A stretch of 64,000 nucleotides of DNA from Austwickia sp. (GCA_039812465.1 JBDIAS010000001.1:16206-80205); one strand, 5' to 3'; shown: positions 21,058 through 41,847, counted from the stretch's first letter. The notes: generated from the letters alone by a model not told the origin. Numbers and translations are program-made.

Positions 21058-21076
21058 ACCAAATGTTCGTTCGGTA
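21058..21076. promoter_or_regulatory. PaaR-operator-like half site (reverse complement TACCGAACGAACATTTGGT), 33 bp upstream of paaG
   Basis: Shares ACCGAACG with the palindromic sites at 29822, 32846, 36743 and 41637. Confidence 0.4.
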
Positions 21077-21108
21077 TCCGGTCGTGGGCCGGACGCGAGG
21101 AGGACCGC

Positions 21109-21897
21109 ATGGAGCAGCTGCGTGTCGAGCGGGACGGCGGCGTTCTCACCGTCACCTTGAATGCCCCCGACAAGGGCAACGCCCTCAACGAACCGCTCAA
21201 GGTGGCCTTGCGAGACACGCTGGCTGACGCCGCTTCGGACTCCTCGGTGCGCGCGCTGGTCCTGACCGGCAACGGCAAGACGTTCTGCGTGGGGCAGGAC
21301 CTCGCCGAGCACGCTGCGGCGCTCGAGAAGGGCGGCCCGGAGCTGGCCTTCGCGACGGTGGGGGAGCACTACAACCCGATCGTCACCTCCCTGGCGACGA
21401 TGCCCAAGCCGGTCATCGCCGCCATCAACGGCACGTGCGTGGGGGCGGGGCTCGGCTTCGCGCTGGCGTGCGACATCCGGATCGCCGCGCAGGAGGCCAA
21501 GTTCGGGACCGCCTTCAGCGGTATTGGGCTCACCGGCGACTCGGGGCTCTCGGCGACGCTCGCGCGCGCCGTCGGGATGGCGCGGGCCAGCGAGCTGCTC
21601 ATGCTCGCCCCCACCTTCGACGCGGCGCAGGCGCTCGACTGGGGCCTCGTCGGCACCGTCGTGCCCGCAGCAGATCTGGCTGCCGCCGCGCAGAAGACCG
21701 CGGCCCGCCTCGCCTCAGGTCCGACGGCCGCGTACGCCATGATCAAGCGCTCCCTGCACGGGGCGTGGGGCGTGGACCTCGAAAGCGCCCTCGCCGCGGA
21801 GGGGAAGGGCCAGCTGGAGGTCGGGAGCACCGCCGACCACTCGGGCGCCGTCACGGCGTTCCTCTCCAAGCAGCGCCCGACGTTCACGGGTCGCTGA
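21109..21897 (+). CDS. paaG: 2-(1,2-epoxy-1,2-dihydrophenyl)acetyl-CoA isomerase (crotonase family)
   Basis: By-eye alignment to E. coli PaaG: FCVGQDL, YNPIV, PKPVIAAINGTCVGAG and the C-terminal AFLSKQRPTFTGR. Confidence 0.8.
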   Translation: MEQLRVERDGGVLTVTLNAPDKGNALNEPLKVALRDTLADAASDSSVRALVLTGNGKTFCVGQDLAEHAAALEKGGPELAFATVGEHYNPIVTSLATMPKPVIAAINGTCVGAGLGFALACDIRIAAQEAKFGTAFSGIGLTGDSGLSATLARAVGMARASELLMLAPTFDAAQALDWGLVGTVVPAADLAAAAQKTAARLASGPTAAYAMIKRSLHGAWGVDLESALAAEGKGQLEVGSTADHSGAVTAFLSKQRPTFTGR

Positions 21898-22127
21898 GGT
21901 TCCTCTCACCGATCGCTGTGCCCCGGGGGACCTTTCGCCGAGGCGCCTCAGCGACGGTGCGGGGCTCGGTCGGCCCAGTGGGCCGTCACTGAGCGGGGAC
22001 TCGCACAGGCAGGAAAAGTCCGGCGAGGCTCTCCGAACGGACGTCTCGGTCGTGTTGTCCGTATACTCGACCTCAAGCTCGTGCCTTATCGGGCGCACCG
22101 ACAACCAGATCGGCTGACCTTCAGACC

Positions 22128-22787
22128 ATGACTGTACGCACCGTTCCCGCGCCTCGGACTTCGTCCAAGGCGCGGCGAGGTCGGCCGGGTCATGATCTGG
22201 AGTCCGTGCTCAGCGGGGCCGTCCGGGTGTTCAACGAACGCGGCTATGACGGCACCAGTATGGAGGATCTCTCCCACGAACTGGGCATCACGAAGTCGGC
22301 GATCTATCACCACGTGTCGAGCAAGGAAGAACTGCTCCGCCTGGCGACCGAACGTGCGCTCGACGGGCTGTTCGCCGTGCTGGACGAGGTCTCTGCCCTC
22401 GACGGCACCGCGTTCCACCGCCTCGAAGAGCTCGTGCGGCGCAGCGTGCTGCTCCTCGTCGACGAGCTTCCGTTCGTCACGCTGCTCCTGCGGGTCCGGG
22501 GCAATACCCCGGTGGAGCGCCAGGCGCTGACCCGCCGCCGCCGGTTCGACACGTTGGTGACCGGGCTGGTCACCCAGGCGCGGGACGAAGGCACTCTGCG
22601 CGCCGACCTGGAGCCGGCGGTGGCCGCTCGGCTGCTGTTCGGGATGATCAACTCGGTCGTGGAGTGGTACCGGCCCCGTCGCGGCGACAAGCCCGAGGAC
22701 CTGGCCGAAGCGATCCGCCTGGTCGGGTTCAGCGGTCTGCGCCGCTGCGCTGACCCGGTGGCCTCGTGTCACGACATCGCGCTCTGA
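22128..22787 (+). CDS. paaR: TetR/AcrR-family transcriptional regulator, PaaR-like by context
   Basis: N-terminal HTH FNERGYDGTSMEDLSHELGITKSAIYHHVSSKEEL. Embedded in the paa cluster. Confidence 0.75.
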   Translation: MTVRTVPAPRTSSKARRGRPGHDLESVLSGAVRVFNERGYDGTSMEDLSHELGITKSAIYHHVSSKEELLRLATERALDGLFAVLDEVSALDGTAFHRLEELVRRSVLLLVDELPFVTLLLRVRGNTPVERQALTRRRRFDTLVTGLVTQARDEGTLRADLEPAVAARLLFGMINSVVEWYRPRRGDKPEDLAEAIRLVGFSGLRRCADPVASCHDIAL

Positions 22788-22944
22788 CTGACTCGTCGCT
22801 TTCTCACGCGCCGCGCTCTCCCTCCCCTCGCCTCGCACTGCGCTCTGCCGACGGCACGAACCAGCTCTCTCGAACGACATCAGTCTGGAAGACTTCGTCG
22901 ACACCAGATTGGAAGACTTCGTGAGGCCTCGAAGCCCGAACGAC

Positions 22945-22982
22945 GTCCGGCCCCGGCGATGAGCGCACCGCCGAGGCCGGAC
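22945..22982. terminator. 8-bp stem hairpin between convergent paaR and paaN
   Basis: GTCCGGCC-(22 nt)-GGCCGGAC. The large loop makes this a weak call. Confidence 0.3.
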
Positions 22983-22999
22983 TCCCTTCGCCCGCGAAG

Positions 23000-24694
23000 T
23001 CAGTCTCCAGAGGGCGCCGGCACGTGGCGCCGGCTCTGCAGCGTGTTGAACCGCCCGGACACGAAGGCCGGGTCGGACAGCGTGGCCGTGGCCGCCGGGT
23101 TGGCGGGGCTGCCGTGGAAGTCGCTGTAGGCCGCGGACTGGTTCACAAAGACGCCGCCGGTCAGGTTCTCCGACAGGTGAACGCCCGCGTCGAGCGCCGC
23201 CTCACGGGCCTGCTCCAGCACCTGCTCGCTCGTGGAGTACACCGACGCCGTCAGCGCGCCGTGGGCGCTCACCGTGTCGCGCAGGATCTGCAGGCTCTGA
23301 TCGGTGCCATCGGTCTCGATGACGAACGAGATGGGTCCGAACCACTCCCGCGTGTACGTGCCCTCGTCGGCGGCCTTGAGCGCCACGAGCAGCGGCGACC
23401 GGACGACGGCGTCCGCGTGCTGCGGGTGCTCCACGACCTCGGAGGCGCGCACGACCGTTCCGACGCCAGCGGCCTCGTCGATGCGCTCCAGGATGGCCTC
23501 GCTGGAGATGGCGCCGAGGATGCCGGTGGCGCGCTTGATGTCACCGAGGAGCCCGTCGAGCGCCTTGGTCAGGTCCGCGCCGAACTCCTGGGCGCTCTTG
23601 TGGCCCTGGTCCGTCTCGATGCCGGACGCCGGGATCAGCAGGTTCTGCGAGGTCGTGCACATCTGCCCGCTGTACAGCGACAGCGTGAACGCGAGGTTGC
23701 CGAGCATCCCCTTGTAGTTGTCGGTCGAGTCGACGATGACCGTGTTGAGGCCGGCCTTCTCCGCGTACACGTGCGCCTGACGCGCGTTGTCCTCGATCCA
23801 GTCACCGAACTGCGTCGACCCGGTGTAGTCGATGATCCGCACGTCCGGGTTCGTGGCGAGCTTGCCCGCGATGGGCTCGCCCGGCATGTCCGGAGTCATG
23901 AGGACGGTGTTGGGGTCGAACCCGGCCTCGGCGAGCACCTCCCGGGCGATCCGCACGGTGATGGCCACCGGGAGGATCGACAGCGGGTGCGGCTTGATGA
24001 TGACCGGGTTGCCGGTCGCGAGGCTGGCGAACACGCCCGGGTAGGTGTTCCACGTCGGGAACGTCACGCAAGCGATGACGAGGGCCACGCCGCGCCCGAC
24101 CGTGGTGAACGTCTTCTCCATGGTGAGCGGGCCGCCCTTGGGCTGCGGCTTGCTCCAGATGGCCGACTGCCCGTGGAAGTGCTGCTCCTTCCACGCGTAC
24201 GCCACGGCCTCGAGCCCGCGGTCCTGGGCGTGCGGGCCGCCGGCCTGGAAGGCCATCGCGAACGCCTGACCGGTCGTGAACTGCACCGCCTGGGCGATCT
24301 CGAAGCTGGCCTGGTTCAGCCGGACGAGGATCTCCGCGCACACGCCCGCGCGCTCGTCGGCGCTGGCGCGACGCCACGCCGCTCCCGCCTCCTTGGCGGC
24401 GGCGACCGCCTCGTCGGGGCCGAGGTAGGAGTACGTGACGTCGAGAGGAACCCCGTACGGAGACTTCTCGGTCGCGGGAACGGTGCCGGACTCGGGCTGG
24501 CCGAGATCGAACTTGTGGCCGAGCAGGGCCTGGAAGGCGGCGGCGCCCTCCTTGATCCCGTTCTCCGGGTAGCTGGCGTCCTTCGGGTTCTCCGAGAACG
24601 CCGAGAAGTAGCCGCGATCCTGGATGGCCGTCGTGGCCCGCTCGAGGAGCTCGCGATGGCGGGAGAAAAAGTCGGTCTTCGTGGACTCGGGCAT
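23000..24694 (-). CDS. paaN: Phenylacetic acid degradation aldehyde dehydrogenase PaaN (ring-opening; PaaZ ALDH-domain equivalent)
   Basis: 564 aa. N-terminus FFSRHRELLERATTAIQDRGYFSAFSENP is typical of PaaN. ALDH catalytic region SGQMCTTSQNLLIP. Confidence 0.85.
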   Translation of the reverse strand: MPESTKTDFFSRHRELLERATTAIQDRGYFSAFSENPKDASYPENGIKEGAAAFQALLGHKFDLGQPESGTVPATEKSPYGVPLDVTYSYLGPDEAVAAAKEAGAAWRRASADERAGVCAEILVRLNQASFEIAQAVQFTTGQAFAMAFQAGGPHAQDRGLEAVAYAWKEQHFHGQSAIWSKPQPKGGPLTMEKTFTTVGRGVALVIACVTFPTWNTYPGVFASLATGNPVIIKPHPLSILPVAITVRIAREVLAEAGFDPNTVLMTPDMPGEPIAGKLATNPDVRIIDYTGSTQFGDWIEDNARQAHVYAEKAGLNTVIVDSTDNYKGMLGNLAFTLSLYSGQMCTTSQNLLIPASGIETDQGHKSAQEFGADLTKALDGLLGDIKRATGILGAISSEAILERIDEAAGVGTVVRASEVVEHPQHADAVVRSPLLVALKAADEGTYTREWFGPISFVIETDGTDQSLQILRDTVSAHGALTASVYSTSEQVLEQAREAALDAGVHLSENLTGGVFVNQSAAYSDFHGSPANPAATATLSDPAFVSGRFNTLQSRRHVPAPSGD

Positions 24695-24785
24695 TCAACA
24701 CCTCATGTCTGGCAGGGACCAGCCGAGCGAGCGGCCGGGCATGTTCACGGTCGTTGCTGGTTGGCGTACGGGGCGAGGTGCCCCG

Positions 24786-26054
24786 TCACTCGTGGGGGGT
24801 CTCGCCGGGCTGCGGGGTGCCGGGCTGCTCGAGCACCTGGTAGGGCTGCCCGTCATAGGTGACGGTGCCGACCTGGGTGAATCCCGAGTATTCCGCGACG
24901 CGCACCGCGGCGGCGTTCCACTGCGGCACCGTCGTGCGGAGGCGACGGTCCTTCGCCACCTTACGGGCATGCTCGATCGCCGCGCGACCGAGCGAAGCGC
25001 CCCAACCGCGGCCGGCGTACCCGGGGCGAACCCCGATGGAGACGTCCAGCACGGTCGGGTGGCTCGGCGCGCCGGTCACCCGGGCGGCCTCACCGAAGCA
25101 GCAGTGACCCAGCAGGCGGCCATCCGCGTCGACGACGGCGCGGTAGCCCTCGTCCGGCATCTCGGCGCCGTCCTGGACATGCCAGGCACCCGGCGTCGGC
25201 GACATCGCCAGCGCCAGCCCGTCTTCGATCGTGAGCTGGCGGACGTGGAGCGGGCCGACGGGGTCGGCGACCTCGGTGGGTCGCTGGGCGCCCGCTGCCG
25301 CCGGGGCCTCGGACTTGCGCGCGGCCTGACGGTCCAGGAAGCGGGTCATGCGCTCCCGCTTGTCCTCGCTGTCGAAGAGCAAGGCCTGGGCCGCCACGTC
25401 GAACGTGGTGGTGGCGGGCCGGTGCAGGCGCAGGGCCAGCTTCGTGAGCTCGAGCGCGCGCCAGGACTGCTTGCCGATCTTTTCCGCGAGGGCCAGGCCG
25501 GCGTCGAGCAGCTGCCCGGGATCGTGCAGCCCGTCCACCAGACCCGCGTCGGCGGCCGCCTGGGCGTCCAGCGACTCGCCGGTGAATAGCATCCGGCGCG
25601 CCACGGGGAGCCCCGCCACCTGGGCCAGCCGCCAGTTGCCGCCGGCGCCCGCCAAGATGCCGAGGGCCAGCTCGGGCTGGGCGAACCGCGCACGAGGCGT
25701 GGCGAGCCGCAGGTCGCAGGCGAGGGCCAACTCGCAGCCGCCGCCGAGAGCCGGGCCGTCGACGAGCGCGATGGTCGGCCAGCGGTGGGCCTCCAGGCGC
25801 TCGAACAGGCCCGCGTTGATAGCCCGCAGAGCCGCGTCCGCGTCCCGGTCGCGCAACTGCGCGATGTCCGCGCCCGCGGCGAAGACACCGGGGGTCGTGG
25901 AGTAGAGGACGATCACGCACGGCTCGCGAGACGCATCCGTGAGGACCCGGTCGATCTGCTCGACCATCGCCTCGTCCAAGGCGTTGTGCTTATCCGGCCG
26001 GTTGAGGCCCAGCAGGAGGGCAGCGCCGCGCCGTTCAGTGTGTACCAGGGCCAT
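24786..26054 (-). CDS. PaaF-like enoyl-CoA hydratase fused to a C-terminal GNAT N-acetyltransferase domain
   Basis: Residues 1-~250: FAAGADI, GGGCELALACD and FAQPELALGI (crotonase catalytic Glu residues). An Ala/Pro linker follows. The last ~150 aa carry GNAT motif A, VRPGYAGRGWGASLGRAAIEHA. Confidence 0.8.
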   Translation of the reverse strand: MALVHTERRGAALLLGLNRPDKHNALDEAMVEQIDRVLTDASREPCVIVLYSTTPGVFAAGADIAQLRDRDADAALRAINAGLFERLEAHRWPTIALVDGPALGGGCELALACDLRLATPRARFAQPELALGILAGAGGNWRLAQVAGLPVARRMLFTGESLDAQAAADAGLVDGLHDPGQLLDAGLALAEKIGKQSWRALELTKLALRLHRPATTTFDVAAQALLFDSEDKRERMTRFLDRQAARKSEAPAAAGAQRPTEVADPVGPLHVRQLTIEDGLALAMSPTPGAWHVQDGAEMPDEGYRAVVDADGRLLGHCCFGEAARVTGAPSHPTVLDVSIGVRPGYAGRGWGASLGRAAIEHARKVAKDRRLRTTVPQWNAAAVRVAEYSGFTQVGTVTYDGQPYQVLEQPGTPQPGETPHE

Positions 26055-26067
26055 CTTTCACCGTTTC

Positions 26068-27195
26068 TTACTGGTCGAAGTCGACGGTCACTCGGTCACT
26101 GACCGGGTGGGCTTGACAGGTCAGCACGAAGCCGGCAGCCAGCTCGTTGGGCTCGAGGGCGAAGTTGATGTCCATGCTGACCTCGCCCTCGGTCACCTTG
26201 GCGCGGCAGGTGCCGCAGACGCCGTTCTTGCAGGCGTACGGGGCGTCGGGACGGAACTGCATGAGCGTGTCCAGGATGGTCGCGCCGTCGGTGGGCAGAA
26301 CGAACCTCTGGGACCGGCCGTCGAGGATGGTGGTCACGGTCGAACCGGACTGGGCGGTCGTGGTGGGCGGCGGCGTGCTGATGTCGCCCGGCTTGCCCAC
26401 GTGGAACAGCTCGCGGTGGATGTGATCCTCGTCGGCACCCGACTCGATGAGCACCTCGCGGGCCGCGTCGGTCATCGGCAGCGGACCGCAGAGGAACCAG
26501 TCGTCGATCTCCTCGTGGGACACCAGCTGGCGCAGGATCCGGCCGAGCCGGTCCGCGTCGAGACGTCCCGAGAGGATGTCGACGTCCACCGGCTCTTCGT
26601 CCAGCACGTGGATGAGCTGAAGGCGAGACGGGTAGGCGTTCTTCAGGTCCTCCAGCTCCTCCAGGAACATGATGTTCAAGGTGGTGCGGTTGACGTAGAT
26701 GAGCGTCGCCGTGCTGTTCGGCTCGGTCGCCAGCACGGAGCTGATGATCGACAGCACCGGCGTGATGCCGGAACCGGCCGCGATGGCGCCGTAGTTGCGG
26801 CTCGCCTCGGGGTCCAGGTCGACCGTGAAGCTCCCAGTGGGGGTCAGCACCTCGAGGGTGTCACCCACCTGTAGCTTCTCGGTCGCGAAGCCGGAGAAGA
26901 CGCCGTTCGGGATCCGCTTGACGCCGATGCGGAGCGTGCCGCTGGAGGCGGGGGCGCAGATCGAGTAGTTGCGGCGGATGTCGTCACCAAGGAAGGACGA
27001 GCGCACGGACAGATGCTGGCCCGGCTTGAACAGGAACTGCTCGCGCAGGTCCTCGGGCACATCGAAGGTCACCGCCACGGAATCCTCGGTCAGCCGCTCG
27101 ACCTCGGCCACCCGCAGTGGGTGGAACTGGAGGTGCCGGCGGCCCTTGCCCGCGGTGGGCAGGTCGGTCTGGTCGGGGACCACGGTGTCAGCCAT
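26068..27195 (-). CDS. paaE: Phenylacetyl-CoA epoxidase reductase subunit (FNR-like domain + C-terminal plant-type 2Fe-2S)
   Basis: RNYSICAP FAD motif, GSGITP NAD motif, and C-terminal CKNGVCGTCRAKV...LTCQA. Confidence 0.9.
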   Translation of the reverse strand: MADTVVPDQTDLPTAGKGRRHLQFHPLRVAEVERLTEDSVAVTFDVPEDLREQFLFKPGQHLSVRSSFLGDDIRRNYSICAPASSGTLRIGVKRIPNGVFSGFATEKLQVGDTLEVLTPTGSFTVDLDPEASRNYGAIAAGSGITPVLSIISSVLATEPNSTATLIYVNRTTLNIMFLEELEDLKNAYPSRLQLIHVLDEEPVDVDILSGRLDADRLGRILRQLVSHEEIDDWFLCGPLPMTDAAREVLIESGADEDHIHRELFHVGKPGDISTPPPTTTAQSGSTVTTILDGRSQRFVLPTDGATILDTLMQFRPDAPYACKNGVCGTCRAKVTEGEVSMDINFALEPNELAAGFVLTCQAHPVSDRVTVDFDQ

Positions 27196-27719
27196 CAGAT
27201 CGCCTTGAAGGAGTCGAAGGGTTCAGCACAGGATTTGCAGGTCCACAGGGACTTGCAGGGGGTGGAGCCGAATCGGCTCACCTCGTGGGTGTTCCGGGAG
27301 CCGCATCGCGGACACGTCATCGGGGTCATCAGGGTCAGACCGACCTTCGTCGAACTCGACGCCTTGGTGGGCCCGGGCGGAGCGATGCCGTACTCGCGCA
27401 GCTTCTCCCGTCCCTCCGCGCTGATCCAGTCGGTGGTCCACGCAGGAGAGAGCACGGTGTGGACGCGAACCTCCGAGACGCCGGCCTCGCGCACGGCCGC
27501 GGCGACATCCGCCGCGATGACGGCCGTGGCGGGGCAGCCCGTGTACGTCGGGGTGACGTCCACATCGACGGAGCCGTCGTCCCCGATCCGGAGGTCACGG
27601 ACGACCCCCAAGTCGCCGAGGGTGATGACGGGGATCTCCGGGTCGGGGACGGCCCGGGCGGCCGCCAACAGGCGGTCGACCCCCGGGGCCGTCACCGGCG
27701 CGGTCGAGTTGGTCACCAC
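27195..27719 (-). CDS. paaD: Phenylacetyl-CoA epoxidase subunit PaaD
   Basis: DPEIPVITLGDLGVV and the C-terminal CPRCGS...CKSC motifs. GTG overlaps the paaC stop. Confidence 0.85.
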   Translation of the reverse strand: MVTNSTAPVTAPGVDRLLAAARAVPDPEIPVITLGDLGVVRDLRIGDDGSVDVDVTPTYTGCPATAVIAADVAAAVREAGVSEVRVHTVLSPAWTTDWISAEGREKLREYGIAPPGPTKASSSTKVGLTLMTPMTCPRCGSRNTHEVSRFGSTPCKSLWTCKSCAEPFDSFKAI

Positions 27720-28486
27720 TCGGCACCCGGGTGCGAGCGGTGCAGGTGCTGCATCTCGGCCAGGATGTGCCCGAGGTGCTCGGAGTGGTAGCCGCGGCGA
27801 CCGCCGCGGGCGTGCCAGTGGGGCTCGGGCTGCGAAAGGTCGGCCTCCGCCAGGACCCGGTTGATGTAGACATCCCAGGCCGCCCGGAGGCCCGCCGGGT
27901 CCACCAGGACGCCAGGGAGCTGGTCCGCCAGGTCGGAGCTCTCGAAGAGCTCGTTGACGTACGGCCAGACGTCGTCGAGGCCCGCCTTCATCCGCTCGCG
28001 GGAGTAGTCGGTGCCGCCCGCCAGGCGGAGCACCCACAGCGTGGCGTGCTCCCGGTGGTAGGTGACCTCCTTGAGCGCCTTCGCCGCCAGACCGGCCAGC
28101 GTCTGGTCGCCGCACTGCCGCAGGGCCGAGTACAGCTCGAACTGGTAGGCGGAGAACGCCAGCAGCCGCGCCATGGTGCACGCGAAGTCGCCGTTGGGGG
28201 CCTCGACCATGTGGACGTTGAGGAAGTCCCAGTCGTCGCGCAGGTAGGCCATGTCGTCCTCGTCGCGGCCCTGCCCCTCGACCTCTCCGGCATAGGCGAG
28301 CAGGGTCCGGGCCTGGCCGAGGAGGTCCAGGGACACGTTCGCGATCGCGAGGTCTTCCTCGATCTGCGGCGCGTCGGCGATCCACTCGCACAGGCGCTGC
28401 GACAGGATCAGGGCGTCATCTCCCAGGCCCAGCGCGTAGCGCGCGAGCGGGGGGAGGGTGCGGGTCTTCTCGCTCGCGATCGTCAC
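27713..28486 (-). CDS. paaC: Phenylacetyl-CoA epoxidase subunit PaaC
   Basis: LGDDALILSQRLCEWI and HREHATLW are typical PaaC. 4-nt overlaps with its neighbours. Confidence 0.9.
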   Translation of the reverse strand: MTIASEKTRTLPPLARYALGLGDDALILSQRLCEWIADAPQIEEDLAIANVSLDLLGQARTLLAYAGEVEGQGRDEDDMAYLRDDWDFLNVHMVEAPNGDFACTMARLLAFSAYQFELYSALRQCGDQTLAGLAAKALKEVTYHREHATLWVLRLAGGTDYSRERMKAGLDDVWPYVNELFESSDLADQLPGVLVDPAGLRAAWDVYINRVLAEADLSQPEPHWHARGGRRGYHSEHLGHILAEMQHLHRSHPGAEW

Positions 28487-28809
28487 AGGTGCTCCGCCCC
28501 TTCGGGGACGTCGTAGAACGTCGGGTGCCGGTACGGCTTGTCGATGGACGGGTCGAAGAAGGGGTCCTTCTCGTCCGGGCTGCTCGCGATGATCGAGTCC
28601 GACGGGATGACCCAGATCGACACGCCCTCGGAGCGACGGGTGTAGGCGTCGCGCGCGTTGTGCAGGGCCAGCTCGGCATCCGGCGCGTGGAGGCTACCGA
28701 CGTGGTGATGGCTCAGGCCACGCTTGGCGCGGACGAACACCTCCCACAGCGGCCAGTCCCGCCGGGTCTTCCCGGCCTCCTGCGACGTGCTCTGCTCCGT
28801 GTTGCTCAT
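28483..28809 (-). CDS. paaB: Phenylacetyl-CoA epoxidase subunit PaaB
   Basis: WPLWEVFVR...[11 protein letters not shown]...A.DAYTRR is the conserved PaaB core. Confidence 0.9.
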
Positions 28810-29821: not shown

Positions 29822-29839
29822 ACCGAACGTTCAGTCAGT
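29822..29839. promoter_or_regulatory. PaaR-type operator ACCGAACGTTCAGTCAGT, 27 bp upstream of the paaA start
   Basis: Its reverse complement contains ACTGAACGTTCGGT, identical to the 14-mer at 32846-32859. Confidence 0.65.
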
Positions 29840-29969: not shown

Positions 29970-31166
<1,197 letters not shown>

Positions 31167-32777: not shown

Positions 32778-32827
32778 GACGACTCCGTAACGGGGAGGGG
32801 ACTTCCGCACATGGGGAAAGTCCCAGG

Positions 32828-32859
32828 GGTGAACGAACCAGCACTACTGAACGTTCGGT
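32828..32859. promoter_or_regulatory. Composite operator: GGTGAACGAACC (32828-32839) + ACTGAACGTTCGGT (32846-32859) in the paaH / diiron-operon divergent region
   Basis: The same two-box layout (GGTGAACGAAC, a 6-nt gap, then the GAACGTTCGGT palindrome) recurs at 41618-41650. Confidence 0.65.
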
Positions 32860-33014: not shown

Positions 33015-33032
33015 ACCGAACGAAGATTCAGT
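33015..33032. promoter_or_regulatory. Additional operator-like box ACCGAACGAAGATTCAGT, about 135 bp upstream of the diiron gene
   Basis: Shares the ACCGAACGA and TTCAGT arms with the other sites but has 4 extra central bases. A weaker call. Confidence 0.3.
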
Positions 33033-34221: not shown

Positions 34222-35235
34222 GTGGGTCAGATCCGACTACACCCGTCGTCGCACGTCGTGCCCTGCGGCCCCGGGGACACGGTCCTGGAGGCGTTGGAGC
34301 GGGCGGGGTACGCCCTTCCCAACAACTGCCGCGCGGGAGCGTGCGGGGAGTGCAAGGTCAAGGTCCGCTCGGGCGAGTTCGACCAGGGCTTCGTCCTGGA
34401 CATGGCGCTGTCCCCGCTGGAGCGGGAGGTCGGCTACGGCCTGATGTGCATGGCCAAGCTGATCAGCGACGAGCTGGAGATCGAGTGGGGGACGCCCGAC
34501 GCGCGTCCGGCGATGTTCCCCGCGAAGGACGGACAGCGGTTCGTTCTGGTCGACAGCGTCCAGCGGACCCCGCGCATCACGGAGTTGGTGCTGCGGCCGA
34601 CGGCGTCGCCGCTGCGCTACTGGCCGGGGCAGTACGTCCGGGTCGGCGACCCCGAGGTGGGGCTGCCGATCCGGTCGTACTCCCTCGCCAGTGCCCCGCA
34701 CCCCGACGGTGAGATTCGCCTGCAGGTCACCCGCGTGGACGGCGGACGCACGAGCGCCTGGCTGCACGAGCTACGGCCAGGAGCGGTCATCACGTTGTCC
34801 GGGCCCCACGGGACGTTCGTGGGGGACCCGACGATCGAGACCCCGATCTTGTGTCTCGCCGCCGGGTCCGGCCTGGCGCCGATCCTGTCCCTCACGGAGG
34901 CGGCCTTGCGCCGGGGGTACAAGCGGCCGGTCACCGTGGTCTTTTCGGCCCGACGCCGGGAGGACCTCTACGACCAGGGGCTGCTGAAGTACTGGGAGAT
35001 GCGACACCGCAACTTCCGTTGCATTCCCACCCTGACGCGGGAGAAGGTGGAGGGGATACGGCACGGCCGCATTCCGGACATTCTGGCTGACGTGGTTCCG
35101 TCGCTGCGCGACCGGAGGGTGTTCATCGCGGGCGTGGAGGGGTTCGTCGAAGCGTGCCGGCGGGCGGTCCAGGCCCTCGGGGCCGACGACCGACGGATCT
35201 TCACGGAGGGCTTCTACGAGCAGCCGGACCGTTAA
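34222..35235 (+). CDS. Oxidoreductase: N-terminal plant-type [2Fe-2S] ferredoxin + FAD/NAD(P)-binding FNR domains (MmoC/BenC-type order)
   Basis: CRAGACGECKVKV...LMCMA cluster motif, RSYSLAS FAD motif and AAGSGLAPILS NAD motif. Confidence 0.85.
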   Translation: MGQIRLHPSSHVVPCGPGDTVLEALERAGYALPNNCRAGACGECKVKVRSGEFDQGFVLDMALSPLEREVGYGLMCMAKLISDELEIEWGTPDARPAMFPAKDGQRFVLVDSVQRTPRITELVLRPTASPLRYWPGQYVRVGDPEVGLPIRSYSLASAPHPDGEIRLQVTRVDGGRTSAWLHELRPGAVITLSGPHGTFVGDPTIETPILCLAAGSGLAPILSLTEAALRRGYKRPVTVVFSARRREDLYDQGLLKYWEMRHRNFRCIPTLTREKVEGIRHGRIPDILADVVPSLRDRRVFIAGVEGFVEACRRAVQALGADDRRIFTEGFYEQPDR

Positions 35236-35283
35236 CTCAACGGCGCGCGACCCGTGCCGCCAGAGGCGAGGAGGTGGCGGGTC

Positions 35284-36678
35284 GTGCGGCAGCTGAGCGG
35301 CATGGACAGCGAGTTCCTGGCGATGGAATCGGGTTCCGTGGTAGGCCACTTCGGCACCGTGACCCTGCTCGCGCCACCGGCGGACGGCCGGGTGTTGGAC
35401 GTACGCGTGGTGCGGGCGCACGTCGCCTCCCGACTCCATCTCGTGCCAGTGCTGCGCCAGCGCCTCGTGCCGGTGATGTGGGGCGTCGACCAGCCGTACT
35501 GGGTCGACGACCGCGCCTTCGACCTGACGCGGCACGTCCTGGAGGTACGGCTGCCCGAGGGCAGCGGTGTGGACCGTCTGTCCGAGGCGGTGGCGGACCT
35601 GCACCGGCACCGCCTCGACCGCAACAGGCCGCTGTGGGAGCTGTACTTCGTGACCGGTTTGTCCGAGGGGCGGTCGGCCTTCTACCTGAAGATCCACCAC
35701 GCCGTGATGGACGGCGCGGGGTGGGCGTCGCTGATGGGGGCGCTCCTCGACAAGGAACCGGGACCGCCCGACGTCCCCCCGCCGCGGGACTGGCGCCCGG
35801 AACCGGTGCCCACGCACTTGGAACTGCTCAGCATGAGCGGGTGGTCGATGGCTCGGACCTCCCTGCGCAGCATGAAGCTGGGGCTGGAGTTCATGGCGCG
35901 CGCCCCGGCCCTGACGGCGCGTCAGATCATGCCGCTGTCGCAGTCCGAGGTGATCCCGCTCACCGCGCCGCCAGCGCCGTTCAACCAGGAGATCTCAGGC
36001 GCCCGCAGCTGCGTGCTGGTCGATCTGCCCATGGACTCCGTCCAGACCGTCCGCCGATCCGTGGGGGCGACGGTCAACGACGTCGTGATGACCCTGTGCG
36101 CCGGCGCCCTCCGTCGCTGGCTGCAGGACCACGACGCGCTGCCCCCGCAGCCTCTGGTGGCCGTGGTTCCGGTCTCGGTGCGGGCGCGCGACGACCGAGA
36201 GCCCCTCGGCAACCGCCTGGGGCTCGTCCGGGGCTTGCTGCCCACCCACCTGGAGGACCCGCTCGCCCGGCTGGCGGCGATGCGCGAGGAGATGAATCGG
36301 GCCCGGGAGCGCCGAGAGGCGCTGCCGCCGCAGCTCCTGGTCGACGCCGCCGATTACGCCCCGCCGCTGGTCGCCGAGGCGGGGTGGTGGCTCACCTCGC
36401 GGGTGATGCGGCGCGTCAACGCCTGGAACGTCATGATCTCCAACGTACGGGGCCCTTCGGCGCCGCGGTTCTTCGCGGGGGCGCGGGTCATCGCGAACTA
36501 CCCGGTGTCCGTGATCGTCCACGGCCAAGGCCTCAACCTGTCGGTGTTCAGCATCGCCGGGCGCCTCTGCTTCGGTCTGGTGGCCGATCCCACGCTGGTG
36601 CCGGATCTGCCTCGGATCGGCGACTATCTCGCCGAGGAGCTCGAATTGCTCTGCAGCGCAAGCACTTCGGGCCATTAA
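35284..36678 (+). CDS. Wax ester synthase / diacylglycerol O-acyltransferase (WS/DGAT)
   Basis: Active-site HHAVMDG, an N-terminal LSGMDSEFLAME and NRPLWELY. GTG 35284 lies 9 nt after GAGGAGG. Confidence 0.85.
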   Translation: MRQLSGMDSEFLAMESGSVVGHFGTVTLLAPPADGRVLDVRVVRAHVASRLHLVPVLRQRLVPVMWGVDQPYWVDDRAFDLTRHVLEVRLPEGSGVDRLSEAVADLHRHRLDRNRPLWELYFVTGLSEGRSAFYLKIHHAVMDGAGWASLMGALLDKEPGPPDVPPPRDWRPEPVPTHLELLSMSGWSMARTSLRSMKLGLEFMARAPALTARQIMPLSQSEVIPLTAPPAPFNQEISGARSCVLVDLPMDSVQTVRRSVGATVNDVVMTLCAGALRRWLQDHDALPPQPLVAVVPVSVRARDDREPLGNRLGLVRGLLPTHLEDPLARLAAMREEMNRARERREALPPQLLVDAADYAPPLVAEAGWWLTSRVMRRVNAWNVMISNVRGPSAPRFFAGARVIANYPVSVIVHGQGLNLSVFSIAGRLCFGLVADPTLVPDLPRIGDYLAEELELLCSASTSGH

Positions 36679-36742
36679 CCCAGCCCAGGAGGGGATGGCG
36701 CGCCGCGCGTCACCGAAAAGATACCCGCCAGTACCTAGACAT

Positions 36743-36768
36743 CAGAACGTTCGGTTAGTAATACTAAC
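36743..36768. promoter_or_regulatory. Operator CAGAACGTTCGGTTAGT overlapping the 15-bp palindrome GTTAGTAATACTAAC, upstream of DUF485-actP
   Basis: Contains the exact 11-mer GAACGTTCGGT. It is 65 bp after the WS/DGAT stop and 222 bp before ATG 36981. Confidence 0.6.
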
Positions 36769-36980: not shown

Positions 36981-37391
36981 ATGACGTCCGACGTCTCCTT
37001 CGTCTCACCCGTCACCGACGCCTCGGGCGCGCCGCACACGCTGGCGAGCCCGGCGGGAAGGAACCGCATGCCTCCCTCCACCGAGGATTCCAGAGCGGCC
37101 AGCCAGCGGTATTACCAAGGCATGGTCCAAGCCCGGCGCCAGATCATCGTGCCGCTGGTGCTTCTCACCCTGGTGTTCTTCTTCACTCAGCAGGTGCTCA
37201 CCAACTTCACGACTGCGTTGGACGGCATGGCCTTCTCGGGCATGAGCTGGGCGTACATCTACGCGTTCGCACAGTTCTTCTTCGTCATCATCCTGACGAC
37301 GATCTACCGAAGCCGCATGCAGCGCGTCGAGACCGAACTCGGTCGCCTGCTGCCCACGGCCGCCGCTGAGGCGGGGGAGGTTCACCGATGA
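36981..37391 (+). CDS. DUF485-family small inner-membrane protein (YjcH-like partner of ActP)
   Basis: Two TM segments (IIVPLVLLTLVFFF; WAYIYAFAQFFFVIILTTIY). ATGA overlap with the symporter gene. High GC3 from 36981. Alternative ATG at 37068. Confidence 0.75.
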   Translation: MTSDVSFVSPVTDASGAPHTLASPAGRNRMPPSTEDSRAASQRYYQGMVQARRQIIVPLVLLTLVFFFTQQVLTNFTTALDGMAFSGMSWAYIYAFAQFFFVIILTTIYRSRMQRVETELGRLLPTAAAEAGEVHR

Positions 37392-38995
37392 GCGTTCAGT
37401 CGGCAGTCCTGTTCGTCGTCCTGGTCGCCGTCACGCTCGGCATCACCTACTGGGCCGGCAAGCGCAACAAGAGCGTCGAGTCCCACCTGGTCGCCAAGGG
37501 CGCGATCTCCGGCCGGGCGAACGGAGTCGCCATCGCGGGCGACTTCATCTCGGCGGCCACGTTCCTGGGGACCACGGGCGCGATCGCGCTCGGCGGCTTC
37601 AACGGCTTCTACCTGGCCGTGTACATCCCCATCGCCTACCTGCTGTGCATGCTGCTCGTCGCCGAGCCGCTGCGAAACCTGGGGCAATTCACGCTCGGGG
37701 ATGTCCTCGCGACGCGGTTCCCGGGCCGGGACGTCCGCGCCGTGATCGCGATCGCGTCGATCGTCGTCTCGCTGCTCTACATCGTCGCCCAGTTCGTCGG
37801 CGCGGCGCTGCTCGTGCAGCTCCTCTTCGGCATCCCGTACTTCGTCGCGGCGCTGCTCATCGGTGTGCTGACGATGATCTACACGCTGTTCGGCGGGATG
37901 ATCGCGACGACCTACATCCAGATCGTCAAGACCGGGATGTTGCTCTTCTGCGGCGCGCTCCTGCTGGTGCTCGTCGTGATGCAGTATGGCTGGAACCCGA
38001 TGAACGTGTTCCAAGAGGTGGCCGACACCACGCAGAACAGGGCGCTGCTTCCCACGCGGGCCGGCATGGGCCCGCAGATCGAGCAGTTCTCCATGATCTT
38101 CGGCGTCACCCTCGGTGTCCTCGGCCTGCCGCACGTCATGATCCGCTTCCTCACCGTGCGGGACGGTCAGGCCGCGCGCACCTCCGCGGTCACGGCCATC
38201 TGGATCTTCGCGATCTTCCTCATCACGCTGCCGGTCATGTCGTACGGCGCGATGCTGATGGTCGGGCGCGACGCGATCCGCGCGGAAAGCCCGGGCGGCA
38301 ACCTGGCGATGCCGCAGCTGGCGAACCACATGGGAGGCGATCTGCTGCTGGCGTTCGTCTCGGCGGTCGCCTTCGCGACGATCCTCGCGGCCCTGTCCGG
38401 CCTGGTGATCGCCACGACCGGCTCGGTGACGCACGACATCTACACCAAGCTGGTGAAGAAGGGTCACGTGAACCACCACGCGCAGCTGCAGGTGGCTCGT
38501 ATCGCCACCTTCGGCAGCGTGGCCCTGTCGCTACTGATCGCGCTGGCCGCGCAGAAGCAGAACGTCGCCTTCCTCGCGACCCTCGCGATCGCCGTCGCGG
38601 CGAGCGCGAACCTGCCCGCGCTGCTCTTCACGATCTACTGGCGCAAGGCCACGGCGCAGGGCATCGCGATCGGCATGGTTGCTGGGCTGGTCACTGCCGT
38701 CGGCATCATCCTGGTGAGCCCCACCTTCCACGGTTCCGCGGAGACCGCGCTGCTGCCCTTCAGCAGCCCGGGCATCGTCTCGATCCCGCTCGGCTTCGTG
38801 GTCATGTGGATCGTGTCCTTGGCCACACAGCCGAAGGGCGCAGAGCTTGAGCAGGCGAACCGCACGTTCGACCGCATCCGGATCCAGGCCGTCACCGGCA
38901 TCGATCCCGACACGCTCGAGGGGACCGCGGAGCGCGAAGGGACGGACGAGCCGCTGACGACCGAGGAGGAGCACTCCTCGACGCCGACCGCCTGA
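37388..38995 (+). CDS. actP: Solute:sodium symporter family monocarboxylate permease (ActP-like; possible phenylacetate/acetate uptake)
   Basis: About 13 TM segments, SSF signatures (GDFISAATFLG, TYIQIVKTG) and DUF485 pairing. Confidence 0.8.
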   Translation: MSVQSAVLFVVLVAVTLGITYWAGKRNKSVESHLVAKGAISGRANGVAIAGDFISAATFLGTTGAIALGGFNGFYLAVYIPIAYLLCMLLVAEPLRNLGQFTLGDVLATRFPGRDVRAVIAIASIVVSLLYIVAQFVGAALLVQLLFGIPYFVAALLIGVLTMIYTLFGGMIATTYIQIVKTGMLLFCGALLLVLVVMQYGWNPMNVFQEVADTTQNRALLPTRAGMGPQIEQFSMIFGVTLGVLGLPHVMIRFLTVRDGQAARTSAVTAIWIFAIFLITLPVMSYGAMLMVGRDAIRAESPGGNLAMPQLANHMGGDLLLAFVSAVAFATILAALSGLVIATTGSVTHDIYTKLVKKGHVNHHAQLQVARIATFGSVALSLLIALAAQKQNVAFLATLAIAVAASANLPALLFTIYWRKATAQGIAIGMVAGLVTAVGIILVSPTFHGSAETALLPFSSPGIVSIPLGFVVMWIVSLATQPKGAELEQANRTFDRIRIQAVTGIDPDTLEGTAEREGTDEPLTTEEEHSSTPTA

Positions 38996-39020
38996 CGCCG
39001 CCCCGTCAGCACTGCACCCA

Positions 39021-39050
39021 GGCCGCCCGACGGATACCCGTCGGGCGGCC
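39021..39050 (+). terminator. 13-bp perfect-stem hairpin after actP
   Basis: GGCCGCCCGACGG-atac-CCGTCGGGCGGCC, 26 bp after the actP stop. Confidence 0.5.
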
Positions 39051-39074
39051 CGCGTCTGCCCAGGAGGTTGCACC

Positions 39075-40364
39075 ATGAGCTCGACCAAGGACCGGAGCTC
39101 CGCCCCGTCGCCGCCGGCCTGGGTGGTCCGGCTGTCCGGTAGCCGCATGCATTACGGCTGGATCATCGCCGCCCTCGGGATGACCACCGTGTTCGCCTGT
39201 CTCGGGATCGCGCGCTTCTCGCTCGGGATGCTGCTGCCCTCGATGCGGACGGACATGGACCTGTCCTACACGGACATGGGCTGGATCAGCACCGGCAACT
39301 TCGTCGGCTACCTGGTGGCCGCGCTGCTCTGCGGCAGGCTGGTCACGCTGTTCGGCGCGCGCGCCGTCGTCGTCGGCTCGCTCCTCATGATCGCGGTGAG
39401 CCTCCTGGTCGTCGCGGCCGCGAGCGCCGTTGCGCTGATCTGGCCGGCGTACCTCGTGACCGGGCTGGGCAGCGGGGCCGCGAACGTCGGGGTGATGAGC
39501 CTGGTGCCGCACTGGTTCTCCCGCCGGTGGCGGGGACGCGCCGCGGGCATCATGGTCATCGGCAGCGGGCCCGCCATCATGATGAGCGGCCTGCTCATCC
39601 CCGCGATCACGGCGCGTTGGGGCGCCGCGGGCTGGCGGCTCGGCTGGGTGGTCCTGAGTGGCGTCGTCTTCCTCGTGGCCCTCGTCGTGGGTCTGCTGAT
39701 CCGCAACCGCCCCTCGGAGCTCGGCCTGAAGGTGCACACCCACCGCTCGGACACGTCCGCGTCGGGCCATCCGGCGCCCGAGCCGGAGGCCACGCACGTG
39801 ACGCGGACGATGCTCCACCTCGGCGGCATCTACTTCCTCTTCGGGTTCACGTACGTCGTGTACGTGACCTTCATCGTGACCTTCCTCGTCCAGGAGCGAG
39901 GCCTGAGCGAGCGCACCGCCGGCTATTTCTGGTTCGTGGTCGGGGCGTTGAGCATCTTCTCCGGCCCCGTGTTCGGCGCGCTCTCGGACCGGGCGGGGCG
40001 CCGGATCGGGCTGGCCGTCGTGTTTGCCCTGCACGCCGTCTCGTACCTGCTGATGGGGCTCCACCTGCCTGAGGCGTCGGTCTTCGCGTCGATCGCGCTC
40101 TTCGGGTTCGCCGCCTGGAGCATCCCCGGCATCATCGCGGCGGCGGTCGGGGACTACACAGGGCCTGCGAAGGCCGCCACCATGTTCGGCACGTTGACGG
40201 TCGTGTTCGGCCTCGGGCAGGCGGCGGGACCGCTCGTGGCGGGGATGATCGCCGAGCGCAGCGGCGGCTTCTCGCTGGCGTTCCTCATGTCCGCCGTGCT
40301 CGCCGGCGCCGGGTGCCTGCTGTCACTCGCCCTCCGCCCGCCGCCGTCACACGCGACGGGATAA
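39075..40364 (+). CDS. MFS transporter (YbfB/YjiJ-like)
   Basis: 12 predicted TM helices. ATG preceded by CAGGAGG. Confidence 0.8.
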   Translation: MSSTKDRSSAPSPPAWVVRLSGSRMHYGWIIAALGMTTVFACLGIARFSLGMLLPSMRTDMDLSYTDMGWISTGNFVGYLVAALLCGRLVTLFGARAVVVGSLLMIAVSLLVVAAASAVALIWPAYLVTGLGSGAANVGVMSLVPHWFSRRWRGRAAGIMVIGSGPAIMMSGLLIPAITARWGAAGWRLGWVVLSGVVFLVALVVGLLIRNRPSELGLKVHTHRSDTSASGHPAPEPEATHVTRTMLHLGGIYFLFGFTYVVYVTFIVTFLVQERGLSERTAGYFWFVVGALSIFSGPVFGALSDRAGRRIGLAVVFALHAVSYLLMGLHLPEASVFASIALFGFAAWSIPGIIAAAVGDYTGPAKAATMFGTLTVVFGLGQAAGPLVAGMIAERSGGFSLAFLMSAVLAGAGCLLSLALRPPPSHATG

Positions 40365-40407
40365 CGCCGCGCGGCGCCTCCGGACGCGGGCGGGGGAGCC
40401 GGCGATG

Positions 40408-40443
40408 CGACGGGGGGAGCCGACGATGTCGGCTCCCCCGTCG
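40408..40443. terminator. About 16-bp stem hairpin between the convergent MFS and phaZ genes
   Basis: CGACGGGGGGAGCCGAC-gat-GTCGGCTCCCCCGTCG (one bulged G). Confidence 0.6.
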
Positions 40444-40471
40444 CGCGGTGCGCTTCTAGCTCTCGCCCCTT

Positions 40472-41545
40472 CTAACCCTCGCTCTGGGGCGCGTCGGCGG
40501 TCTTGGGGGTTTCGGCGGCCTTGGCCGCGTTGGCCTTCTGGGTCGCTGCTTCCTCCGCCTTCTGGGCCGCCGCCGCCTTCTTGGCGGTCTCTGCTTCCGC
40601 CTTCTTGGCCGCCGCAGCCTTCTTGGCGGCCTCTGCCTCCGCCTTGTGGGCCGCCGCCGCCTTCTTGGTCGCTTCGGCCTTCTTGGCGTCGATGGCCCTG
40701 ACGGCCTTGATCCCCTCCCGCAGGAACTTCGAGATCACCGGGCCGACGCGCTCGGGGCTGTCGACGAGCACCATGTGACCGCCGTCCCGCACCACGTGCA
40801 GGTGCGAGTTCGGAATGCACTTGGCGATGACCTTGTGGTTGAACAGCGGGGTGACCGGGTCGTCATCGCCCCCGATGATGAGCGTGGGCCTCCGGATCGC
40901 CCACAGCCACGGGAGGCTCGTCCACCCCATCAACGGCGCCATCCGGTACATCGCCGCCCGCAGGCTCGACGGCTTGTTCATGTCGAACGAGCTGATGAGC
41001 TCCGGCTCTTCGCGGAAACGCCCGCCGAACAGGTCGCCGGCCACCTTCTCGATCTTGCCCGGCTTGTAGCTCAGCGGGTTGACGAAGTGGATGAACGACT
41101 TCAACTTGCCGGGCTTGGCGAAGCCCCCGTACGAGGTGGAGACGAGCACGACGCTGTCGACGTGCCGCGGGTGCAGTAGCGCCATCGTCTGTGCGGTCGC
41201 GCCGCCGAAGGAGACGCCAAGAACGTGCGCCTTCTCGATGCCGAGGAAGTCCAGCACCAGGGTGCCGAGCTCGGCGAGCGCGAACATGTTCATCGGGAGG
41301 AGCGACAGTTGACTCTGCCCGATGCCCGGAGGGTCGAACATAATGATCCGGAAGCCCTTCAGGTAGGGCAGGAGCGACTTCCACAGGTCTACCTCGGCGA
41401 AGGCCCCGTTGAACATCAGCAGCGCCGGCCCGGTCCCGCCACACATCTGCACGTGGATGTTCAGCCCGCGCACGTTGATGGTGGTGGTCGTGACTTCGGC
41501 CTCAGAAATGCCGGCCAGCAGGTCGGAGATCGAAACTTCGGGCAT
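40472..41545 (-). CDS. phaZ: Intracellular PHA depolymerase (Pseudomonas PhaZ-type alpha/beta hydrolase) with a C-terminal Ala/Lys-rich repeat tail of about 75 aa
   Basis: By-eye alignment to P. putida PhaZ: LLMFNGAFAEVDL, MFDPPGIGQS, VLGVSFGGATAQ (Ser box), GWTSLPWLWAIRRPTLIIGGDDDPVTP and SHLHVV.DGGHMVL. Tail: (A/T)xKKAAAAxKAEAE x3. ATG 41545 follows AGGAGG. Confidence 0.8.
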   Translation of the reverse strand: MPEVSISDLLAGISEAEVTTTTINVRGLNIHVQMCGGTGPALLMFNGAFAEVDLWKSLLPYLKGFRIIMFDPPGIGQSQLSLLPMNMFALAELGTLVLDFLGIEKAHVLGVSFGGATAQTMALLHPRHVDSVVLVSTSYGGFAKPGKLKSFIHFVNPLSYKPGKIEKVAGDLFGGRFREEPELISSFDMNKPSSLRAAMYRMAPLMGWTSLPWLWAIRRPTLIIGGDDDPVTPLFNHKVIAKCIPNSHLHVVRDGGHMVLVDSPERVGPVISKFLREGIKAVRAIDAKKAEATKKAAAAHKAEAEAAKKAAAAKKAEAETAKKAAAAQKAEEAATQKANAAKAAETPKTADAPQSEG

Positions 41546-41617
41546 GGAGCCTCCTAGCGGCTGCACTGACGACTCAGCGACGGTAAGGCCGCGCGTCGTC
41601 CAGCGGCCGCCCCCTTC

Positions 41618-41650
41618 GGTGAACGAACGGCAGAAAACCGAACGTTCGGT
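41618..41650. promoter_or_regulatory. Composite operator: GGTGAACGAACGG + perfect 14-bp palindrome ACCGAACGTTCGGT (41637-41650), 92 bp upstream of phaZ
   Basis: The perfect palindrome was read directly. Same two-box layout as 32828-32859. Confidence 0.7.
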
Positions 41651-41829
41651 TACATCATGCGTCGGTGACGGAGCCCGGGGCCACGCAGGAGGCCTGTGGA
41701 ATCGATTACATCTTGCGCCACCGAGGCGCTGGTCAGCAAGGCGACGGCGGCGTGAGTCGCCCCTCACTGGTCGGTCGTACAGAAGTGCGGAAATCGTCTG
41801 CGGGAACCTCGCTGAGACGGTTGACTCCC

Positions 41830-41847
41830 ACCGGACGGTCGGTTAGT
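41830..41847. promoter_or_regulatory. Operator-like ACCGGACGGTCGGTTAGT upstream of the acyl-CoA ligase operon
   Basis: ACCG-NN-CG-NN-CGGT-N-AGT pattern. Shares the CGGTTAGT arm with the site at 36743. Confidence 0.5.

Follow-up and report, generated by a model that had tools for sequence, protein, structure and literature searches.

Palindromic boxes upstream of phenylacetate, transport, polyhydroxyalkanoate and diiron genes in an Austwickia sp. genome segment are putative operators of a PaaR-type repressor

Genes and palindromic boxes of the window

We analyzed a 64-kb stretch of Austwickia sp. DNA (JBDIAS010000001.1, positions 16206-80205; 70% G+C; here, the window) in which a palindromic sequence, the putative operator of a TetR-family repressor, recurs in front of phenylacetate (paa) genes and of several neighboring operons. 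Genes were assigned with Pfam and NCBIfam. A paaG-like enoyl-CoA hydratase/isomerase gene (21109-21897, plus strand; Pfam ECH_1, with PaaG as the best NCBIfam model at 228 bits, below cut-off) precedes the gene for the TetR-family repressor (22128-22787, plus strand; PF00440 [TetR_N] and PF17932 [TetR_C_24]). The minus strand then carries the paaA-B-C-D-E operon (23000-29795), which runs from paaA, B, C, D and E (26068-29795) through an ECH and GNAT fusion gene (24786-26054, between paaN and paaE) to paaN (23000-24694; PaaN model, 813 bits, above cut-off), followed by paaJ, encoding a 3-oxoadipyl-CoA thiolase (29970-31166; NCBIfam pcaF/PRK09050, 669 bits, above cut-off), and paaH (31257-32810; PaaH model, 615 bits). 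On the plus strand lie genes for a ferritin-like diiron protein (33165-34193), a Fer2-FAD-NAD reductase (34222-35235) and a WS/DGAT acyltransferase (35254-36678), and then for a DUF485 protein (37068-37391), an SSF/ActP-family symporter (37388-38995) and an MFS transporter (39075-40364). A PhaZ-like alpha/beta hydrolase gene (40472-41545, minus strand) is divergent from a plus-strand cassette that seems to belong to polyhydroxyalkanoate (PHA) metabolism: acyl-CoA ligase 1 (42062-43573), acyl-CoA ligase 2 (43570-45213), a thiolase (45256-46518), PhaC (46475-48769; Pfam PhaC_N) and a PhaB-like short-chain dehydrogenase/reductase (SDR; 48893-49642).

For comparison, we used related loci, among them L001 and L006, which belong to one Dermatophilaceae metagenome-assembled genome (MAG) whose TetR and diiron proteins are 85 to 87% identical to those of the window; L097, a metagenome contig with 66 to 89% protein identity to the window; L002, a Kineosporiaceae MAG; and L103, from Austwickia. 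L011 and L016 were taken from a contig scan anchored on paaH; among the matches listed in that scan, relatives reached ≤55% identity and were mostly Betaproteobacteria and Solirubrobacterales.

The exact 11-mer GAACGTTCGGT has five matches at four loci in the window, compared to 0.01 expected from shuffled sequences. The matches lie at 29822-29832 (minus strand), 32849-32859 (plus strand), 36745-36755 (plus strand) and, on both strands, 41637-41650, which is a perfect 14-bp palindrome. When up to two mismatches were allowed, the 14-mer ACCGAACGTTCGGT matched six times, against 0.34 expected, and none of 100 shuffles attained six matches. Five of these matches (29822, 32846, 36742, 41637 and 41830) are in promoter regions and, because the gene starts were set by homologs, can be placed in intergenic DNA; the rarity and the intergenic position of the 11-mer copies described in a preliminary description of the locus both hold. 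The sixth match, at 22347, was rejected as an operator: it falls within the TetR coding sequence, and the orthologous locus in L001 has no match there at up to three mismatches. Positions 8026, 30897 and 38859 were also set aside, as they appear only at three mismatches of the 14-mer, where the frequency of matches is that of chance.

The boxes occupy positions, relative to the promoters, that are classical for repressors. The paaA box (29822-29839) consists of a 14-bp core, ACCGAACGTTCAGT, with a nested +4 arm (TCAGTCAGT), and ends 27 bp ahead of the start codon, immediately 5′ of a GGAGGAG ribosome-binding site. The perfect palindrome at 41637-41650 is 92 bp before the start of the hydrolase gene, which was placed at 41545 (tblastn covers residues 1 to 277, and the L006 ortholog has 277 amino acids); both distances reproduce those first reported. 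The paaH box (32846-32859; ACTGAACGTTCGGT) had been placed 69 bp before paaH, which is correct for the shorter start of the L006 ortholog, whereas the distance is 36 bp from the start of the longest open reading frame (32810). In front of DUF485, whose start was set by its ribosome-binding site and by a 104-amino-acid L006 ortholog, the box at 36742-36755 (TCAGAACGTTCGGT) lies within the spacer of a promoter-like site found by a promoter scan (36736-36765, plus strand; TAGACA-18-AATACT). The box at 41830-41843 (ACCGGACGGTCGGT) similarly fills the spacer of the ligase-operon promoter (41821-41849, plus strand; TTGACT-17-TAGTTT), which was read directly from the sequence and precedes the homolog-set ATG of ligase 1 at 42062. 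A terminator call at 41830 was dismissed, since it reflects the palindrome and a T-run that follows it.

Two further boxes belong to an 18-bp class in which the half-sites are 4 bp further apart. The paaG box (21058-21075; ACCAAATGTTCGTTCGGT) is 34 bp before the paaG ATG and directly follows a promoter-like site from the promoter scan (21025-21052, plus strand; TTGACT-16-TAGAGT), so that it lies just 3′ of the −10 element; this promoter is kept in L001 as TTGACC-16-TAGAAT. The other box (33015-33032; ACCGAACG-AAGA-TTCAGT) is 133 bp before the diiron gene. To score the boxes in a noncircular way, we built a weight matrix from the sites of other genomes only and compared the window with 200 null sequences, whose maximum score was 19.0 bits. 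The boxes at 41637, 32846 and 29822 scored about 25 bits and the box at 21058 scored 20.1 bits, all above the null maximum.

Two elements of the preliminary description were not retained. In its composite layout, GGTGAACGAAC was followed by the palindrome after a 6-nucleotide gap; the two copies of GGTGAACGAAC in the window lie 7 and 8 nucleotides ahead of the palindrome, the element is absent from the orthologous places in L006, and at up to one mismatch at least two matches occur in 24 of 100 shuffles. Likewise, the weak box proposed at 22032, 5′ of the TetR gene, has not been kept in L001.

The TetR protein and its relatives

The TetR protein encoded at 22128-22787 scores above the cut-offs for both PF00440 and PF17932, i.e., an N-terminal helix-turn-helix and a C-terminal ligand domain. 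Its best solved relative is SCO3833 (PDB 2IAI), with a near-full-length match (E = 1.6e-59; 204 bits), and the second best is Thermus PfmR (PDB 3VPR, TTHB023; E = 4e-21; 79 bits). SCO3833 was named PaaR, the repressor of the paa operon, in a 2026 preprint on DNA affinity purification sequencing (the multiDAP atlas; 10.64898/2026.06.06.730586), which reports 3 to 22 peaks per genome for it. Judged by its sequence, the window protein is an ortholog of the actinomycete PaaR, in agreement with its initial assignment as a PaaR-type regulator. Orthologs with 74 to 88% identity are found in MAGs labeled Dermatophilaceae, Kineosporiaceae, Austwickia and Streptosporangiaceae, and the recognition helix, KSAIYHHV, does not vary among seven orthologs from paa or PHA cassette contexts. 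The gene lies between paaG and paaN in the window and also within or beside the paa cluster in L001, L002, L103, L107 and L016; in L091 and L105, it is located outside the paa cluster. The PaaR-type TetR of a paaK cluster in L093, which is probably proteobacterial, is only 25% identical to the window protein.

Orthologs in L105, L107 and L016 have a box 5′ of their own gene. In the window, autoregulation is more likely to operate via the paaG promoter than via the 22032 site, since the scan found no terminator-like site between paaG and the TetR gene and since paaG, paaI and the TetR gene are contiguous in L002.

Published PaaR and PfmR operators have ACCG..CGGT arms in common with the window boxes. 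The PaaR operator of Burkholderia is ACCGACCGGTCGGTT; those published for Thermus are CNAACGNNCGTTNG (PaaR) and TACCGACCGNTNGGTN (PfmR), and AACGA-N4-TCGGT is a putative site of Streptomyces pristinaespiralis PaaR. A 22-bp motif, ACTNACCGNNCGNNCGGTNAGT, is reportedly recognized by PaaR of Corynebacterium glutamicum, and a text search for this motif returned no match. The actinomycete PaaR systems (C. glutamicum, S. pristinaespiralis and SCO3833) thus resemble the window in having a TetR repressor encoded in or beside the paa genes and an operator with palindromic ACCG..CGGT arms that overlaps the paa promoters. They differ in that the window has boxes also before the PhaZ-like hydrolase gene, the ligase-PhaC cassette, the DUF485-SSF-MFS genes and the diiron-reductase genes, and in that the 64 kb of the window hold no PaaK-type ligase. 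PaaR of Burkholderia cenocepacia and Thermus is also a phenylacetyl-CoA-responsive TetR protein with an inverted-repeat operator, but it belongs to a separate TetR lineage and its regulon is limited to paa operons.

We therefore favor, at a probability of roughly 0.7, the interpretation that the boxes are operators of the PaaR encoded at 22128-22787 and that they govern the paa, transport, hydrolase/PHA and diiron units together. Binding to ACCGAACGTTCGGT or to the 18-bp version would involve one PaaR dimer or two. As the boxes are situated in the −35/−10 spacer, over the transcription start or just 5′ of the ribosome-binding site, bound PaaR would block transcription, and an acyl-CoA would relieve the repression; by analogy with characterized PaaR proteins, the likeliest effector is phenylacetyl-CoA. 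The paa part of such a regulon would comprise paaG, paaABCDE-ECH/GNAT-paaN and paaH-paaJ. Beyond these, it would include the DUF485-SSF-MFS uptake operon, the PhaZ-like hydrolase gene, the ligase-ligase-thiolase-PhaC-reductase cassette and, via the 18-bp box, an uncharacterized diiron oxygenase-reductase pair, which in the window is followed by the WS/DGAT gene.

The TetR protein could instead be a general acyl-CoA sensor similar to FadR or to PfmR, whose reported effectors are fatty acyl-CoAs. Its inducers would then be medium- or long-chain or phenylalkanoyl-CoAs, and the paa genes would form one branch of an acyl-CoA and storage lipid regulon. PfmR is the second-best solved relative, is itself a TetR repressor that joins phenylacetate and fatty acid metabolism and has a similar operator, and the genes behind the window boxes include those for FadD-like ligases, a thiolase, PhaC and WS/DGAT. 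Moreover, the ortholog gene of L091 adjoins a PHA cassette with no paa genes, and that of L105 adjoins a GlpD-like gene. On the other hand, PfmR is much more distant than SCO3833 (79 versus 204 bits) and has no known PHA or diiron targets, the boxes that score highest and are kept most widely are those at paaA and paaH, and the Thermus and Burkholderia PaaR proteins respond to phenylacetyl-CoA when tested. A general sensor thus seems unlikely.

Conservation and reach of the putative regulon

The boxes stand out from their surroundings when the window is compared with its relatives. L006 has kept the boxes at paaA, paaH, DUF485-SSF, the hydrolase gene and the ligase promoter, with 12/14 to 14/14 identical positions (15/18 for the 18-bp box; range, 84 to 100%), compared to just 46 to 51% identity in the remainder of those intergenic regions. 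Orthologous paaA boxes are found in L006, L002, L103, L107 (where the box is perfect) and L016 (two boxes in the divergent region between paaA and the TetR gene). The paaH box is 12/14 identical in L006, perfect in L097 and also kept in L002, with diverged flanks. L002 has boxes before paaG, paaA and paaH, and L103 has them before paaJ-H-Z and before paaA. At the aligned place of the paaG box, L001 has ACCACATGAACGTTCAGT and L002 has ACCAACCGTTCGGT.

Outside the paa genes, the DUF485-SSF box is identical in L006 and L097. The hydrolase palindrome is perfect in L006, L097 and L098, and the divergent region of L091, L103 and L112 contains variant boxes (ACCGACCGAATGATCAGT, ACCGAACGAACGATCGGT and ACCGACCGTTCGGT, respectively). 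At the ligase promoter, L006 matches the window without change over a block of 44 bp, and L097 retains the box; L097 thus has boxes at paaH, DUF485-SSF, the hydrolase gene and the ligase promoter. The three weaker boxes of the first description, before paaG (21058), the diiron gene (33015) and the ligase genes (41830), are each kept in relatives.

The divergent arrangement of the hydrolase gene and the ligase-ligase-thiolase-PhaC-SDR unit, with a box in between, is shared by the window, L006, L097, L103, L091 and L112. The L006 locus stops inside ligase 2, and the order from ligase to SDR was confirmed in L091, L097, L103 and L112. A short contig, L098, includes only the hydrolase ortholog (57% identity), with a perfect box in front. 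In L091 and L112, there are no paa genes within 10 kb of the PHA cassette. The second box, at the ligase promoter, is confined to the clade of the window, L006 and L097.

Before the diiron gene, five genomes have the 18-bp pattern ACCGAAyG-N4-kTCrGT, in which the half-sites are kept and the center varies: AAGA in the window (33015), GAGA in L006, AATA in L097, ATTA in L091 and TTGA in L103. This spacing recurs in the paaG boxes of the window and L001, and the paaA box holds both the 14-bp and the 18-bp registers (ACCGAACGTTCAGTCAGT). At up to one mismatch, the 18-bp pattern matches the window only at 21058, 29822 and 33015, against 0.34 expected; this excess is partly circular, as the pattern was taken in part from the window's own sites. 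The class agrees with the putative S. pristinaespiralis PaaR site, and two dimers may possibly bind on registers 4 bp apart.

The diiron protein itself (341 amino acids) is 70 to 77% identical across Actinobacteria, Alpha-, Beta- and Gammaproteobacteria and Halobacteriovorax, where it is annotated only as hypothetical. It matched no Pfam family; the motifs E115xxH118 and E216xxH219 are invariant. The best fold matches of its confidently predicted model (predicted local distance difference test score [pLDDT], 82) are to R2-like ligand-binding oxidase (R2lox), and these are weak (template modeling [TM] score, 0.45 to 0.5; 15% identity). The Fer2-FAD-NAD reductase gene is always located 3′ of the diiron gene (window, L007, L091, L093, L103, L110 and L111). 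In several lineages, the diiron gene lies beside a paa regulator gene (a PaaR-type TetR or PaaX), and in L091 and L103, a PaaR ortholog gene is directly beside the diiron and PHA genes. The pair is not intrinsically linked to paa, since Paraburkholderia and Halobacteriovorax have it in isolation and another actinomycete has it beside MarR.

Several observations weigh against so wide a PaaR regulon. The weight matrix separates four window boxes from the null, but it leaves those at 41830 (14.1 bits) and 36742 (13.8 bits) inside the null range; the case for these two candidate boxes comes from conservation and not from matrix score, and their conservation extends only to L006 and L097, the two closest genomes. 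In L091 and L103, the ligase promoter has retained TTGAC-N17-TAGCTT and has no box. As for the 18-bp class, its spacing is unusual for a single TetR dimer, and another protein could bind there. The diiron pair adjoins MarR in L007 to L010, where the diiron loci have no box within two mismatches, and in L110 and L111, no regulator gene adjoins it.

The low scores, the narrow distribution of the transporter and ligase promoter boxes and the boxless ligase promoters would all be expected if only the paa promoters were real targets, with the transporter, hydrolase, ligase and diiron boxes being neutral or recently copied look-alikes that are kept because the genomes are close. Nevertheless, the hydrolase/ligase box persists down to 57 to 60% protein identity and in nonsyntenic genomes (L098, L112, L091 and L103), the remaining intergenic DNA has diverged to about 50% identity, and the boxes are placed exactly in promoter spacers. 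We consider a regulon restricted to paa very improbable.

A factor other than PaaR at the 18-bp boxes (33015 and 21058), or a role for them as mere promoter elements, would place the diiron-reductase-WS/DGAT genes outside the PaaR regulon. The MarR or PaaX neighbors of the diiron pair elsewhere and the partial circularity of the pattern statistics are in line with this, and the 4 bp added between the half-sites turn them by ∼140 degrees relative to each other, which a single TetR dimer would accommodate poorly. Against it stand the conserved half-sites around a variable central 4 nucleotides in five genomes, the PaaR ortholog genes directly 5′ of the diiron gene in L091 and L103, the equivalence of the variant to the AACGA-N4-TCGGT site reported for Streptomyces PaaR and the presence of both registers in the paaA box. 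On balance, we regard a separate factor as rather unlikely, if less so than the other two alternatives.

The claim that a single operator ties the paa genes to lipid, transport and PHA operons can accordingly be narrowed. A regulon extending beyond the classical paa genes seems probable from the comparison of sequences, with boxes before DUF485-SSF, the hydrolase gene, the ligase/PHA cassette and the diiron gene kept in three to seven genomes. The lipid link is thin, because WS/DGAT was found only in the clade of the window, L006 and L097. The tie to transport is upheld by the conserved DUF485-SSF box, but the symporter arguably serves a classical paa function: the phenylacetate permease of Pseudomonas belongs to the same family, which makes uptake a plausible role. 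The diiron operon does have a conserved box, but of the 18-bp variant and not the 14-mer.

Enzymes of the cassette and physiological setting

Apart from a PaaK-type phenylacetate-CoA ligase (PF14535, AMP-binding_C_2), which was found neither in the 64-kb window nor in the syntenic loci L001 and L006, the phenylacetate pathway is complete in the window. The two FadD-like ligases encoded behind the boxes may substitute for PaaK or may activate phenylalkanoates. The closest structure to ligase 1 is a feruloyl-CoA synthetase (8WEV), and those closest to ligase 2 are the DmdB-like 6IHK and a Thermus long-chain fatty acyl-CoA synthetase. The symporter belongs to the ActP/MctC family, with scores below the equivalog cut-offs. 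The ECH-GNAT fusion is kept in L001 and L002 and may be an alternative oxepin-CoA hydrolase.

PhaC is class II-like but fails the curated class II cut-off (TIGR01839, 607 bits versus 855); the class I model gives 489 bits against a cut-off of 623. The name phaZ, first given to the hydrolase gene, turned out to be a family-level guess, as the protein scores 161.9 bits with TIGR02240 (PHA_depoly_arom), below the cut-off of 250.6. Orthologs with 57 to 61% identity bear the automatic JGI label poly(3-hydroxyoctanoate) depolymerase, and the PhaC neighborhood and an AAKK tail are no more than suggestive of a PhaZ function. This tail, at the C terminus (window 40472-40700), is an Ala/Lys-rich stretch of ∼75 residues with AAKKAEA repeats; it is absent from the 277-amino-acid orthologs of L006 and L097. 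It resembles the histone-like tails of the PHA granule proteins PhaF and PhaM.

The type of repressor and operator is already known and the mechanism is not new. What appears to be undescribed is the conserved tie of a paa operator to a PHA cassette, an uptake operon and an orphan diiron oxygenase across several genera; no paper linking PaaR to PHA genes was found in the literature searched. The closest parallel is the phenylacetyl-CoA catabolon of Pseudomonas putida U (Luengo and coworkers), which is said to couple a medium-chain-length PHA synthase and depolymerase, FadD-type ligases, beta-oxidation and a phenylacetate permease to the paa core. In Pseudomonas, PaaX (GntR family) governs the paa core and a separate regulator governs the pha genes, whereas in the window one TetR-type operator is common to all units.

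More tentatively, in Dermatophilaceae-type actinobacteria, the lineage to which polyphosphate accumulators of wastewater belong, one PaaR might gate the whole PHA cycle (the class II-like synthase, the PhaZ-like depolymerase and the two acyl-CoA ligases) on aryl-acyl-CoA, together with the conserved diiron oxygenase-reductase pair, although we hold this to be doubtful. If true, a single operator would serve a phenylacetyl-CoA catabolon in Gram-positive bacteria, and the orphan diiron enzyme would be expected to act on a substrate related to phenylacetate, a first clue to the function of a 341-amino-acid protein known only as hypothetical. It could also explain why former Tetrasphaera polyphosphate accumulators have pha genes although no PHA is detected in them in situ (PMC9123174). 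The boxes suggest that their pha genes might be switched on by aromatic acids from which phenylacetyl-CoA is formed, a condition open to testing.

Some of the leaders downstream of the boxes contain conserved stretches. The leader between the box promoter and the DUF485 start (∼300 nucleotides) includes a conserved block, GACGTCCGACGTCT..TTCGTCTCACCCGTCACCGACGCC (window, about 36985-37025), whose reading frame is disrupted by an indel in L006, so that it is probably noncoding. In the hydrolase/ligase region, two conserved blocks, GTTACATCTTGCGCC and GGTCAGCAAGG, are located between the two boxes (window 41700-41750), and a conserved hairpin, GCCGTGC...GCACGG, closes the ligase 1 leader (41856-42061; ∼200 nucleotides) just before the ATG. 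An Rfam scan of the window identified four tRNAs only and no known RNA family in the long leaders, including the GACGTCCGACGTCT..TTCGTCTCACCCGTCACCGACGCC block. Three of the tRNA genes are clustered 5′ of a glgB-like gene (18708-18981), and one follows a PGPGW domain gene (50388-50461).

In L011, a distant Actinomycetota MAG, PaaR-type boxes are found at 6651, 9188 and 13191. One lies before a true PaaK gene, from which a hydrolase-ligase pair diverges; the others lie before an SDR-paaH pair and a gene for penicillin amidase. A PhaC gene is located near the boxed genes. The hydrolase of L011 is only 25% identical to that of the window and hence was not counted as an ortholog. The box before the penicillin amidase gene has a parallel in the regulation of pac by PaaX in Escherichia coli.

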